Source: an uncultured Pseudomonadota bacterium (GTDB taxonomy: Bacteria > Myxococcota_A > Polyangia > Fen-1088). From it: DNA of 64,000 nt. The stretch's first letter is position 1. The number at the start of each line of letters is the position of its first letter. The translations under genes and the position numbers were made by a program. Of this stretch, positions 43,219-58,847 are shown piece after piece. The stretch is from positions 384,001 through 448,000 of the forward strand of contig CAWKBC010000027.1 in NCBI GenBank assembly GCA_963847705.1. The letters run 5' to 3'. A model generated the notes under the pieces. It was not told where the DNA came from. It saw only the letters and a program-made list of their open reading frames with translations, and did not search any database.

Positions 43219-44733
43219 ATGAAGATGACGGTCACGATGAACAGGATTTCGCTCGCCCTGCTCTTCGGAGGTCCGCTCCTGGTTGCGGTCGGCTGTAGCT
43301 CGAGCGGCGGATCGGGGGGGCCAGCTGGAAACTGGGGCGCCGGCGGAAGCGCGAGCGGTGGGACGACCGGCACCGGGGGAGCCGTCGTCGTCCCCATGCC
43401 GATCGACGCCGGCACGGGCGGCTGCACCTTCACCGGGACCTACGCGGTGAGCCCGGTGATCTCCACCGTCGGGATCGTCACCTTCGCGACGTTGCTCCCC
43501 AACCCGACGGAGGCGCACATCGACTTCGGCCTCGACACCTCCTACGGCATGACGGCGCCGGTCGACCTCACGCAACCCGGCTATCGAACGTTGCTGCTCG
43601 GCATGAAGCCCTCGAAGACCTACCACTTCCAGCTCTCGGCGAGCTCGGCCACCGACGGCGGCGTCCTCACCTGCACCAGCGGCGACCTCACGCTCATGAC
43701 CGGCGCGGCGCCCAACGGGATGCAAAACCCGACGATCACCACGAACGACGCCAGCGCGCTGTTCGGCGGATTTCTCGTCACCGGCCAGTACAACCAGGTG
43801 ATCATCGGCGGAACTTCGGCGGGCGCCCCGGCGTTCATCCTCGACAAGGACGGCACCTACGTCTGGTGGTACACGGTCGTCGGCAGCGACGCCACCGGGG
43901 TCACCATGAGCTACGACGGCAACTACATGTGGATCAACAGCGTGAACGTGCCGAGCCACATCGCCAAGGTGCACCGGGTGTCGATGGACGGGTTGATTGA
44001 CGAGGACCACTCGGACGAGTTCGCGGGCCTCAGCCATCAGCTCACGGTGCTGCCGGACGAGACGGTGGCCTTCTACGCCTACGGCACGAACGGCTGTGAC
44101 GACATCAAGCTGCGCGCGCCGGACGGCACGGTCACCACCGTCGTCAACGCCCAGACCGCGCACGGCGGGACCGACGCCTGCCACGTCAACGCGATCTTCT
44201 ACTCTCGCCCGGACGACACGCTGGTCTTCGGCGACCTCGACAACAACTGCCTCACCAAGATCACGCGAACCGGGACCACCGTCTGGGTCTTGAACGGCGG
44301 CGTCGACACCGGGCCCACCAGCTCGTTCAACGGCGGGGGCCTGGTCTGGCGCGGCGGCGAGCATGGCTTCCACATTCTCGGCCTCGACGACTTCGTCATC
44401 TTCAACAACAACGCGATTGCGCCGGCGGCGAGCAAGGTCAGCTGGGGCGCGGCCGCGGGAGACGGCACCGGCTCGTTCGGGATCGAGATCAAGCTCGACC
44501 TCACGGCGATGACGGCGACGCGGACCTGGGCCTACCAGGCGGTCGGGCTCGACGACAGCGTCCTCGGCGACGCCCAGCGCCTCCCCAACGGCAACACCAT
44601 GATCGACTTCTCGACGAAGGGATCGATCCAGGAGGTCGACGCCAGCGGCAACCTCCTGCAGGAGATCAAGACGACCACGAATTTCGGCTACCTGCAGAAG
44701 CGCGCCACGCTGTATGGTCCACCTCCCAGGTAG
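43219..44733 (+). CDS. Arylsulfotransferase (ASST)-like beta-propeller lipoprotein, paralogue 1
   Basis: AVGC lipobox; Ig-like N-domain; ILDKDG.YVW, SHQL, CHVNAIFY, GGEH, FNN and QRLPNGNT motifs. Confidence 0.65.
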   Translation: MKMTVTMNRISLALLFGGPLLVAVGCSSSGGSGGPAGNWGAGGSASGGTTGTGGAVVVPMPIDAGTGGCTFTGTYAVSPVISTVGIVTFATLLPNPTEAHIDFGLDTSYGMTAPVDLTQPGYRTLLLGMKPSKTYHFQLSASSATDGGVLTCTSGDLTLMTGAAPNGMQNPTITTNDASALFGGFLVTGQYNQVIIGGTSAGAPAFILDKDGTYVWWYTVVGSDATGVTMSYDGNYMWINSVNVPSHIAKVHRVSMDGLIDEDHSDEFAGLSHQLTVLPDETVAFYAYGTNGCDDIKLRAPDGTVTTVVNAQTAHGGTDACHVNAIFYSRPDDTLVFGDLDNNCLTKITRTGTTVWVLNGGVDTGPTSSFNGGGLVWRGGEHGFHILGLDDFVIFNNNAIAPAASKVSWGAAAGDGTGSFGIEIKLDLTAMTATRTWAYQAVGLDDSVLGDAQRLPNGNTMIDFSTKGSIQEVDASGNLLQEIKTTTNFGYLQKRATLYGPPPR

Positions 44734-56267: not shown

Positions 56268-57065
56268 ATGCACACCCGCCGCTTCCTGTTCGCCCTGTTC
56301 GCCTTGCTGCTCTCCGGGACGGCGCAGGCGGACAAGGGCCCCTCGGCCCGCGAGATCATGGACAAGGTGACCACCACCCGGAAGCTCGACGGCTCGGAGG
56401 CGGTCATCAAGATGACCGTCTTCGGTGAAGGCGGGCAGGCGCGCGAGCGCGAGATCTCGATGGCCACCAAGCTCTACGACGGCGGCAAGACCGAGAAGCG
56501 CATCTACCGCTTCCTGTCGCCGGCCGACGTCCAGGGGACGGGGATCCTGGTCTACGACTACGAAGCCAAGCCGGACGACGTCTGGATCTACCTGCCCGCA
56601 TTGCGCAAGACGCGACGGGTGGTCAGCACGCAGCGCGCGCAGAGCTTCATGGGGAGCGAGTTCTCGTACGGCGATCTGAACATCCCCTCGCTCGACGACT
56701 TCAACTACACGCTGGTGAAGGAAGAGGAGTCGGGGGGCGAGCCCTGCTACGTCATCGACCTGGCGCCGAAGACCAAGGAGATCGCAGAGGCCGAGGGCTA
56801 TTCGAAGAAGACCTACTGGGTGAGCAAGGCGAAGATGGCGGTCGTGCGGGGGCTCTACTACGACAAGGACGGCAAGCTGCTGAAGGAGCTCATCGCCCAG
56901 GACATCAAGCTGCTCGACCCCAAGAACAAGCGGTACCGGGCGATGCACATGGAGATGGTCAACAAGCAGAACGGCCGCAAGTCCGTCTTCGAAACCAAGA
57001 AGGTCACCTTCTCCCCCAGCACCAAGGACGACTACTTCACCACCGCCTACCTCGAGCGCAGCTGA
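56268..57065 (+). CDS. Outer-membrane lipoprotein-sorting (LolA-like) periplasmic protein
   Basis: FLSPADVQGTG.L, DDVWIYLPALRKTRR, SFMGSEFSYGD and YDKDGKLLK motifs. Confidence 0.88.
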   Translation: MHTRRFLFALFALLLSGTAQADKGPSAREIMDKVTTTRKLDGSEAVIKMTVFGEGGQAREREISMATKLYDGGKTEKRIYRFLSPADVQGTGILVYDYEAKPDDVWIYLPALRKTRRVVSTQRAQSFMGSEFSYGDLNIPSLDDFNYTLVKEEESGGEPCYVIDLAPKTKEIAEAEGYSKKTYWVSKAKMAVVRGLYYDKDGKLLKELIAQDIKLLDPKNKRYRAMHMEMVNKQNGRKSVFETKKVTFSPSTKDDYFTTAYLERS

Positions 57066-57142
57066 CCGCCCCACCCGAACTCGCATCAGCTCCGCCTCGC
57101 TCGCTCGCTCGCGGATTTCGTTCCGCTCGGTTTTACTTGGGG

Positions 57143-57257
57143 GCGGCGGGGGCCGGGTGACTCCTCGGCCTGCGCACCTGAAAGGTTGGAATCGTCGGGC
57201 GGAACAACAGAGCCGCCCTCCTCAGCTCCGGCCGAGGAGTCACCCGGCCCCCGCCGC
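57143..57257 (+). repeat. Structured cassette A: perfect 28-bp inverted arms enclosing a 59-nt core
   Basis: Arms 57143-57170 and 57230-57257 are exact reverse complements; core 57171-57229 contains two further hairpins. Confidence 0.9.
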
Positions 57258-57296
57258 GCGCGCGTTCGACCTCGGCTCCACTGCGCCAGCCTCCAC

Positions 57297-57461
57297 CCGC
57301 CGGTCTTGCCGTCCGTCTGGCCGTCGTTTGTCCCGTCGGTCTTGCCGTCCGTCTGGCCGTCGTTTGTCCCGCCGGTCTTGCCGTCCGTCTGGCCGTCGTT
57401 TGTCCCGCCGGTCTTGCCGTCCGTCTGGCCGTCGTTTGTCCCGTCGGTCTTCCCGTCCGTC
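57297..57461. repeat. Tandem repeat, 36-bp unit x about 4.6 (built from three 12-bp variants)
   Basis: CCGYCGGTCTTGCCGTCCGTCTGGCCGTCGTTTGTC at 57297, 57333, 57369, 57405 and partial at 57441; no spacers. Confidence 0.95.
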
Positions 57462-57503
57462 GTCGCGGGCCTCCGGGCGGAGAGGAGCGTTGTTCCGAGG
57501 CAA

Positions 57504-57616
57504 GCGGGAGGGACGGGGATTCGGTCGGCCGGAGCTGAGTCGGGCGGCTCTGTCGTTCCGCCCGACGATTCCAACCTTTTAGGTGCGGAGGCCGACCGAA
57601 TCCCCGTCCCTCCCGC
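57504..57616 (-). repeat. Structured cassette B: perfect 27-bp inverted arms enclosing an inverted copy of the cassette A core
   Basis: Arms 57504-57530 and 57590-57616 are exact reverse complements; core 57531-57589 matches the reverse complement of core A at 54/59 nt. Confidence 0.9.
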
Positions 57617-57629
57617 CCCCGCCGAAGAG

Positions 57630-57690
57630 TTGAGCGGAGCGGAGTGGAGCGGAGCTGAGCGGAGCGGAGTCCAGCGGAATTGAACGGAGC
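57630..57690. repeat. Imperfect pentanucleotide tract (GCGGA)n
   Basis: GAGCGGAGCGGAGTGGAGCGGAGCTGAGCGGAGCGGAG; loosely mirrored by the TCCGC/TCGC tract at 57087-57130. Confidence 0.7.
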
Positions 57691-57704
57691 CCCGCGAGGC
57701 TGGG

Positions 57705-58847
57705 TCAGCGGGCGGAGGCGGGGGCGGGTGCCGGGGCCGAGGCGGGGAGGTTCAGCGGGGGAAGGAAGGTGTCGTAGAAGAAGGCGCAGTCGCGCCGGAT
57801 CTGTTCCTCGGTGAGGCCGAACTTCTCGAGGTCGTACTTGTGCTCCGACTCGTACTGGCGCTGCTTCTCGCCGCGCTTGGCGATGGTGGCGCGCAGCTTG
57901 GGCGTCATCTCGTGGCCGAGGAACTCGCACATCTCGTCCATCATCCCCTCGAAGTCGGCCATCATCCGGTCGTAGCGGACGATGAAGACGCGCTTCTTGT
58001 CGATGAGGCCGCCGGTCCAGTCCTCGTGGAACTTCTGCAGCAGGAGAACCCAGGCCTTGTACATCCGGTCGAGCCAGCGCTTGCGCACCGGCTCGGGCAG
58101 CGACCAGAACCCCACCGCGCGATCGAGCACCCCGATGACCAGGCTCATCGAGCTGGGGATCACCGACAGCGGATCGCGCGCCATGTAGAGGATCTGTGCC
58201 TCGGGGACGTTCTGGAGGAACTGCGGCAGCCGGACCGCCAGCGAGAACAGCTTGGCGATGTTGCGCTCCGACTTGTGCAGCACCAGGCTGCGGCGCCAAA
58301 GCGCGTCCAGCCAGGCGGCGTCGCGCGCCGAGGTGTCGCGCACGCGCGGGTCGAACCACGGCAGAAGATCTTCGTCGTCGAACGACAGAAAGAACCCGTA
58401 GAGGAAGAAGCCGTCGAGGTAGCGGAACAGCACGCCGACGTCGTCGGTCTCGACCGAGCTGAGGCTGGTCTGGTGGGCGTCGGTCGAGTGATACTTGGCC
58501 GGGCTGATCTTCTCGAGCAGCGGCAGAATCGGCCGCAACAGCTTCTGCAACGTGAGCGACGGGTAGAGCATCAAGAACAGCTCCATCCCCGAGCCGAAGC
58601 CCTCGTCGGCCAGGAAGCGCTGCAGGAAGGTGGTCCCGGTGCGCGGGTTGCCGACCAGCACGATGGGGCGGTTGGCCCGCGTCTTCCGCAGGCGCGGGAA
58701 GAAGACGTTGTCCAGCGCCATGGCCACCGCGACGAACGTCCGCACGCATCCAAAGAGCACCGCGATGAAGAGCGGCGCGACCTTGACGCCGAAGGTTCGC
58801 CGCAGCACGCGGTAGACCCGACCCATTCGAGAGAAGATGCTGTTCAT
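57705..58847 (-). CDS. PAPS-dependent sulfotransferase (Sulfotransfer_3 family)
   Basis: 5'-PSB loop VGNPRTGTTFLQR; 3'-PB motif YMARDPLSVIPS; VRYD; hydrophobic N-terminal segment. Confidence 0.88.
   Translation of the reverse strand: MNSIFSRMGRVYRVLRRTFGVKVAPLFIAVLFGCVRTFVAVAMALDNVFFPRLRKTRANRPIVLVGNPRTGTTFLQRFLADEGFGSGMELFLMLYPSLTLQKLLRPILPLLEKISPAKYHSTDAHQTSLSSVETDDVGVLFRYLDGFFLYGFFLSFDDEDLLPWFDPRVRDTSARDAAWLDALWRRSLVLHKSERNIAKLFSLAVRLPQFLQNVPEAQILYMARDPLSVIPSSMSLVIGVLDRAVGFWSLPEPVRKRWLDRMYKAWVLLLQKFHEDWTGGLIDKKRVFIVRYDRMMADFEGMMDEMCEFLGHEMTPKLRATIAKRGEKQRQYESEHKYDLEKFGLTEEQIRRDCAFFYDTFLPPLNLPASAPAPAPASAR

Follow-up and report, generated by a model that had tools for sequence, protein, structure and literature searches.

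A mobile family of paired hairpin repeats at gene ends in one genus of uncultured myxobacteria

Two inverted, structured cassettes lie between convergent genes in a stretch of 64,000 nucleotides of DNA from an uncultured bacterium (the window, by which the whole stretch that was analysed is meant). They belong to the A/B/C repeats, which are a real, mobile repeat family restricted to one genus of uncultured myxobacteria. Three subtypes can be distinguished: A and B share a core and differ in their arms and ends, and C has a related core. That the family is a mobile, non-autonomous repeat is very probable. The window holds one A+B pair. The form in which the family moves is probably folded single-stranded DNA (ssDNA), with an HUH enzyme as the agent.

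How palindromic intergenic repeats spread when they have neither a GTAG tag nor a cognate RAYT is the question on which this family bears. It is small, well resolved, strongly covarying and strand-biased, with dated gains and losses at orthologous sites, and the question becomes testable since a concrete candidate enzyme is present in the same genome as the repeat. If the family were only a decaying repeat, it would serve as a marker of the lineage and cause rearrangements at gene ends, and would be of modest interest. No description of it was found in a literature search whose coverage excludes most subscription journals.

Structure of the pair and its relatives

The features of the pair are listed in Table 1. 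In both units, the arms are exact reverse complements of each other, 28 bp long in A and 27 bp in B, and the two inverted 59-nt cores are identical at 54 of the 59 positions, as a preliminary description of this DNA had stated. It was also confirmed that the flanking genes converge, the LolA-like gene with its end at 57065 and the sulfotransferase-family gene with its end at 57705. Several other parts of that description are to be refined. The arms are indeed self-complementary and mutually divergent, and those of A and B are diverged homologues, with 21 matches in a 29-column alignment. Two core hairpins do give a three-way junction, but the second core stem, which is paired over 9 bp in most copies, contains 2 mismatches in A. 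The outer tracts, described as pentamers, consist of 5-mers on the right but mostly of 4-mer repeats on the left, and whilst arms and cores were delimited correctly, the full unit is larger than the cassette, i.e., ~165 nt with conserved ends.

Table 1. Features of the A+B pair and its flanks, in window coordinates.
Feature	Position	Strand	Basis and remarks
LolA-like gene	56268..57065	+	Pfam PF17131, E 4e-55; host gene, outside the element; its stop codon is followed by the outer end of unit A
Outer short-repeat tract, 4-mers and 5-mers, continuing into the left end of unit A	57087..57130	+	Sequence; tracts of this kind and stacked partial left ends recur at many sites
Unit A, ~165 nt: two arms with the core between them, bordered by conserved left and right ends	57120..57285	+	nhmmer, 137-156 bits
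Putative folding strand of unit A	57120..57285	-	Mismatch asymmetry
Left arm of A, 28 bp	57143..57170	+	Pairs with 57230-57257; exact reverse complement
Core of A, 59 nt, three-way junction	57171..57229	+	4-bp stem 57176-57186; 9-bp stem with conserved 10-nt loop 57194-57221
Right arm of A, 28 bp	57230..57257	+	Exact reverse complement of the left arm
36-bp tandem array in the spacer	57296..57461	.	4.6 copies, 96%, 12-nt subunits
Unit B, ~165 nt, inverted to A	57478..57641	-	Arms 57504-57530 and 57590-57616 (27 bp), core 57531-57589
Putative folding strand of unit B	57478..57641	+
Outer tract of 5-mers, left end of B	57627..57678	-	Overlapping GCGNAGC words on the plus strand
Sulfotransferase-family gene	57705..58847	-	Pfam PF13469, E 1e-19; host gene; stop codon faces the outer end of B

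On either strand, each cassette folds far better than 200 of 200 shuffled sequences (z about -10 to -12). Perfect inverted repeats of at least 18 bp with a loop of up to 400 number 32 in the 6.1-Mb genome, and 13 of them come from the A/B/C family. An assembly artefact is refuted by the presence of the A+B pair after the same gene in two other genomes (G021 and G003) and by contigs from other sequencing runs that hold both cassettes. The 36-bp array had been considered part of the element. It proved local to the genome of the window (G000), with different orthologous spacers in G021 and G003. Tandem arrays were found in 5 of 19 spacers of 60 nt or more and are all mutually unrelated, and because each of them is different, the 36-bp array is a local event. 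A coding remnant or a CRISPR was rejected as its identity: the array has only loose matches, to low-complexity stretches elsewhere, and CRISPR spacers are absent. At positions 57690-57705, the window lacks a gene for an arylsulfotransferase-like lipoprotein, which in close relatives sits between the pair and the sulfotransferase gene; in G020, a deletion extends from the core of A into this lipoprotein gene.

The core recurs in the genome of the window, where a profile detects 12 full copies and 1 partial copy at 9 sites. A covariance model of 62 A/B copies has matches in 14 of the 26 genomes of the genus (Polyangia) and in none of the 63 other genomes of the taxonomic family; the model did not detect a C copy that is present in G009 or the partial copies of G016. 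Searches with an exact pattern yielded 52 matching stretches in the GTDB collection, 50 of them with a unit and the named records among these 50 being Polyangia, and 93 stretches in metagenomes, 78 of them with a unit. Two patterns gave 0 matches in viral contigs, and among the sequencing runs there was none with half of the repeat's words. A genome contains 1-30 copies. In G013, about 25 near-identical copies abut stop codons, and the single units of that genome have B remnants alongside.

Turnover at the ends of genes

The family is mobile, as the orthologous junctions show: most relatives have nothing there, and others carry a flipped pair, a different subtype or a different repeat. The site after the LolA-like gene contains A+B in G021 and G003, a cut A in G020, C in G009, other repeat families in G001, G008, G007 and G017, and nothing in G011 and G016. 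At an M16-peptidase junction, read in 22 genomes, A+B is found in G000, a flipped pair in G021 and a 27-nt remnant in G001, the remaining genomes having a gap of -17 to 93 nt (16 genomes) or another neighbour (3 genomes). A PPK2 junction is filled in G013; of the other genomes, three have the same gene pair, separated by 2 nt (in G004, the best match of G013), 13 nt and 61 nt, and seven have another neighbour. Altogether, 16 of 56 sites are common to several genomes, and at these, A/B is replaced by C in 5 cases and the pair is flipped in 2. The nearest neighbour of a copy is located in the same genome for 47 of 100 copies, versus 16 expected. No target duplication was detected at 52 junctions, where the longest abutting direct repeat was 3 nt, as in the shuffled control.

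Arrangements were counted in 139 de-duplicated clusters, among which some metagenome contigs may represent one organism. All 54 pairs are oriented tail to tail, with spacers of 5-242 nt, and 46 of them are A+B, the others being C+C (3), A+A (2), A+C (1) and chimeric (2, one locus counted twice). Two identical halves would make a long inverted repeat, which would be unstable, and this may be what keeps the arms of A and B different. The chimeric units (L019:42-468, in G003) have an A left arm and a B right arm and the reverse, as an inversion between the cores would give; a short-read misassembly is possible at this locus. The outer (left) ends face a stop codon in 155 of 186 cases, at a median distance of 24 nt, these numbers resting on a custom ORF caller that mislabels some neighbours, so that the 14 "start-facing" ends are probably mostly errors. 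One copy, in L052, faces a gene start rather than a stop. The inner ends of single units are farther from genes (median 76 nt, n=32). The neighbouring proteins, 86 of the 151 listed having been scanned, are unrelated host proteins with no shared function and no transposase. TAG stops are not significantly enriched overall next to outer ends (75/155 vs. 351/868, p 0.08). The higher frequencies of TAG within 15 nt (29/45, p 0.002) and of a C before the stop (107/155 vs. 441/868, p 3e-5) were found post hoc and are inflated by orthologous sites. In 20 long gaps beside a unit, which were read by eye for hidden genes, only host genes or other repeats were seen.

Some sites also show stacks of partial left ends or deletions of hairpins, and in one case an inversion whose ends are duplicated, all of which point to template switching after insertion. 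Such processes could even account for the whole family if no dedicated enzyme were active now and if the copies spread and changed through switching of replication templates and through gene conversion, involving other copies and short terminal tracts. Partial tandem copies that end at short homologies with the left end, a site composed of a partial A, an inverted whole pair and a partial B, and the replacement of subtypes by each other at fixed sites fit this explanation, as does the fact that no cognate gene was found, a situation shared with CGTC REPs according to the available part of PMC3733652. We nevertheless consider it unlikely. It does not readily explain the insertion into 2-nt or overlapping junctions without prior homology or the near-identical copies at the stop codons of G013, and the sequence conservation of an unpaired loop and of the junction suggests recognition by a protein.

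Other repeats occur at or beside these sites. At the site orthologous to that of the window, G007 (L113) contains an inverted pair with the same layout, i.e., self-complementary, mutually divergent arms and a shared core, but with a different core sequence. A second hairpin repeat family (G000:C7:108830, C29:212424, C47:32925 and about 8 more places) has arms of 23-25 bp ending in a T run, loops of 12-22 nt and flanking tandem arrays, and occupies the site of the window in G001 and G008. A third, more abundant intergenic family (G000:C21:144495 and about 60 more places) is often found inverted beside A/B/C units.

The strand that folds

The unit folds into a stem of 26-31 bp with a three-way junction at its tip. 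The covariation suspected from the compensated arms was borne out among 62 copies, in which 34 of the 44 pairs show changes on both sides, including 2 of the 4 pairs of the 4-bp core stem and 6 of the 9 pairs of the 9-bp core stem. The covariation score is 0.40, compared with 0.11 in shuffled alignments (above all 500 shuffles) and at most 0.09 in slid controls, figures that are no probability, as the fold was drawn from the same sequences and the copies are related. Compensated changes in palindromes can also arise by templated repair without selection.

The mismatches that remain in the stems are asymmetric. On the mRNA-sense strand, A.C occupies 53 cells in 15 column classes versus 3 in 3 for G.T (p 0.008), and C.T occupies 160 cells in 13 classes versus 5 in 4 for A.G (p 0.05), with the reservation that these classes are not independent, since the copies are related. 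Because A.C and C.T on the sense strand correspond to G.T and G.A on the opposite strand, folding of the antisense strand is favored. In subtype C, one Watson-Crick block is exchanged for tandem G.A on the antisense strand. Computed as DNA, 64 of 85 copies have the lower energy when the antisense strand is folded, and computed as RNA, 56 of 85 do; as the RNA energies favor the same strand, this strand test cannot separate DNA from RNA. It is on the sense strand, however, that the apical loops are rich in purines, a feature that would speak for that strand.

The ends of the unit are polarized as well. Among 152 copies, the antisense strand carries the word GCGNAGC at 119 left and 106 right ends, whereas the sense strand does so at 2 left ends and at no right end. 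Outside the family, no such polarity exists genome-wide (31 vs. 29). Variation in the 5-mers is not confined to the N of the loop. According to the available part of one study, GCGNAGC words form very stable DNA mini-hairpins for any N, and their RNA forms are weaker (PMC13037366). It is with moderate confidence that we propose folding of the antisense strand as ssDNA.

The preliminary description had offered, as one of two readings, a structured 3'-UTR RNA in the sense of the adjacent transcript. The sense-strand mismatches and the neighbors without shared function weaken this proposal, and the purine-rich loops point the other way. In a broader form, the unit would be mainly a structured RNA at transcript ends, a stabilizer or terminator in the adjacent mRNA or in read-through of the opposite gene, and would be kept for that role. 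We regard this as improbable. The position after stop codons would suit such a function, copies occur in contigs of an RNA run (contigs of this type carry neither strand nor level), and REPs are thought to act in RNA, as stated in the accessible part of PMC3733652. However, the units are rapidly gained, swapped and lost at the same sites, the copy in L052 is turned toward a gene start, and an RNA role would not explain the spread. Moreover, no Rfam family was matched at gathering score, the 16 matches all being below it and driven by the long stem. As for ribozymes, no family matched and a hammerhead core was found in 0 of 175 copies.

A candidate enzyme

In the mechanism that we favor, the family, which comes and goes at tight junctions between convergent genes, is a non-autonomous element whose folded ssDNA would be moved by an HUH (Y1) tyrosine transposase acting in trans, along the lines suggested for REPINs. 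The folding strand would be the one antisense to the adjacent gene, making use of G.T wobbles and tandem G.A pairs, with GNA mini-hairpins as caps at both of its ends. The A+B pair may be the moving unit, with many of the singles as its remnants; partial copies, flips, deletions and spacer arrays would arise later by template switching at hairpins.

A RAYT or IS200-like gene flanked by the repeat, which had been suggested as a check, was not found. More generally, A, B or C units flank none of the Y1/RAYT-like, integron-integrase, GIY-YIG, IS110 and reverse-transcriptase genes examined (sets of 3, 37, 9, 46, and 42 loci), and no spacer between paired units exceeds 242 nt. No match to NF047646 exceeded the cut-off in 5 genomes. 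The genomes are 68-95% complete, so that such a gene may have been missed. The genome of the window has no match to PF01797 and no DUF559; three distant Y1 genes were found there by protein search, along with one reverse-transcriptase and three GIY-YIG matches, none of the latter two with a unit nearby.

The genus does contain a multi-copy HUH element with a Y1/HUH gene (a weak NF047646 match) and 20-bp terminal inverted repeats (TIRs). There are 3 copies in the genome of the window (G000:C47:43536-44740, i.e., L345, with its Y1 gene at 43847-44500, C2:31476 and C29:169532) and about 40 in G020 (loci L316-L343), and internal tandem amplifications occur. Of 33 TIR matches, 24 are located 5-7 nt inside the stop codon, at convergent stops. 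Exact direct repeats of 5-7 bp are present in 5 of 9 complete loci, whereas A/B insertions have no such repeats. The element seems to target and duplicate the gap between two convergent stops. IS200/IS605 elements are not known to target and duplicate such gaps, and the HUH element is possibly more novel than the A/B/C repeat family.

At about 9 sites, all in one metagenome lineage (L218, L220, L225, L247, L254, L259, L261/L279, L269, and L210/L293), the A/B pair is surrounded by degenerate TIRs of this element, both ends being seen in L293. They are absent at the pair in the window and in genome-derived loci. The enclosure may reflect capture and transport of the pair, or nested insertion in a shared niche. 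Numbers of HUH genes and repeats do not run in parallel: about 40 genes accompany 4 repeat matches in G020, G008 carries 15 genes but no repeat match, and in G003 and G018, which are 79-89% complete, the repeat is present and the HUH gene was not found. The TIR-flanked HUH transposase of the genus is the best candidate class for the enzyme, a candidate and not a result.

A more far-reaching version of the HUH mechanism, which we put forward tentatively and consider somewhat unlikely, is that of a class of large T-shaped ssDNA elements. These would be obligate A+B heterodimers with GNA caps, placed at convergent stops by the TIR-flanked HUH transposase of the genus or by an undescribed ssDNA enzyme. 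If so, the sister family of G007, with the same layout and a wholly different core, would make the fold and not the sequence the recognized feature, and a new class of HUH substrates with a gene-end targeting rule would be at hand.

Other enzymes can be weighed against HUH-mediated transfer of ssDNA. In retroposition, a reverse transcriptase would copy the antisense RNA from its 3' 5-mer tail and leave copies that are cut short at the other end, which would agree with the stacked partial copies always keeping the 5-mer end. This is very improbable, given that the only reverse-transcriptase match in the genome of the window has no unit nearby, that target duplications are absent and that partial copies are nearly identical to the full copy beside them, which is what local slippage would produce. 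That the units are attC-type recombination sites or substrates of IS110 recombinases is almost certainly wrong. In favor of it, antisense-strand folding after a stop codon recalls that of attC sites, 11 of the 26 genomes of the genus have an integron integrase, and one IS110 insertion lies in a core. However, the units are inverted pairs and not direct arrays, none of 175 copies has both attC boxes (RYYYAAC and GTTRRRY), integrase loci hold other attC-like sites and no unit, and 9 related IS110 loci are situated elsewhere.

The IS110-family element in question (L230:708-2152) has subterminal inverted repeats and is inserted in the core of an A copy, which makes the repeat a target and not a cargo. 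REPs are reportedly insertion targets of IS110 elements. As a mobilizer, IS110 was rejected on the basis of this single insertion and the related loci elsewhere. A link to integrons was likewise discarded, as the attC-like sites at integrase loci are different and 10 such loci contain no unit. Chromosomal integrons with their own attC-like sites (L171-L180) are a feature of the integrase-bearing genomes in their own right; in the genome of the window none scored over the cut-off.

Relation to other repeats

Bacterial MITEs such as ERIC, Correia and RUP are, like the A/B/C repeats, 100-400 nt long, non-coding, structured and lineage-restricted, and the A+B pair shares their inverted ends. The A/B/C family differs from them by the lack of a target duplication, by a self-contained hairpin in each half and by the rule of tail-to-tail heterodimers. 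Integron attC sites share the long imperfect hairpin on the strand opposite the gene, just after the stop codon, whereas A/B/C units do not form cassette arrays and are not near an integrase.

Similar systems also include the REPs with a CGTC tag and the TIRtrons. In the available parts of the sources, a preference for heterodimers and a position at gene ends are described for REP families, and CGTC REPs are reported without a known transposase (PMC3733652), while TIR-flanked Y1 genes are known as TIRYTs (PMC3733652, PMC6006769). Dimers near gene ends are thus common to CGTC REPs and A/B/C, as is the apparent lack of a transposase, and a TIR-flanked Y1 transposase in the genus, with TIRs enclosing the pair in one lineage, recalls TIRtrons (PMC3733652, PMC6006769, as far as accessible). 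In contrast, A/B/C units have no CGTC tag, are much longer and branched, and in most lineages have no TIR.

The other reading in the preliminary description was a REP/REPIN-like non-autonomous element. Dispersed copies, tail-to-tail heterodimers, empty and refilled sites and covariation uphold the likeness, but formal membership of the REPs or REPINs does not hold. The A/B/C family is best described as a REPIN/BIME-like non-autonomous element with unusually large T-shaped halves. As far as REPINs and BIMEs are described in the available parts of three papers (PMC3116915, PMC3333891, PMC8266576), both kinds of repeat are intergenic and form inverted doublets, with singles as remnants and heterodimers of two subtypes (y and z in BIMEs), and they share variable spacers, local amplification, proximity to 3' ends and use as an IS110 target. 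The halves of A/B/C, however, measure ~165 nt and contain a three-way junction, compared with hairpins of 20-40 nt, the copies in a genome number 1-30 instead of hundreds, and no RAYT gene flanked by the repeat (REPtron) was found. The GTAG foot, which is needed for TnpA-REP activity according to the accessible parts of PMC3333891 and PMC8266576, is not conserved either: the 5' end of the folded strand reads GNAG with a spread N, i.e., GAAG in 25, GTAG in 20, GCAG in 19 and GGAG in 18 of 175 copies, 93 having no match to the pattern. Separately from the family, the genome of the window contains a single doublet of the classical GTAG-type REP (G000:C10:29922-29985).
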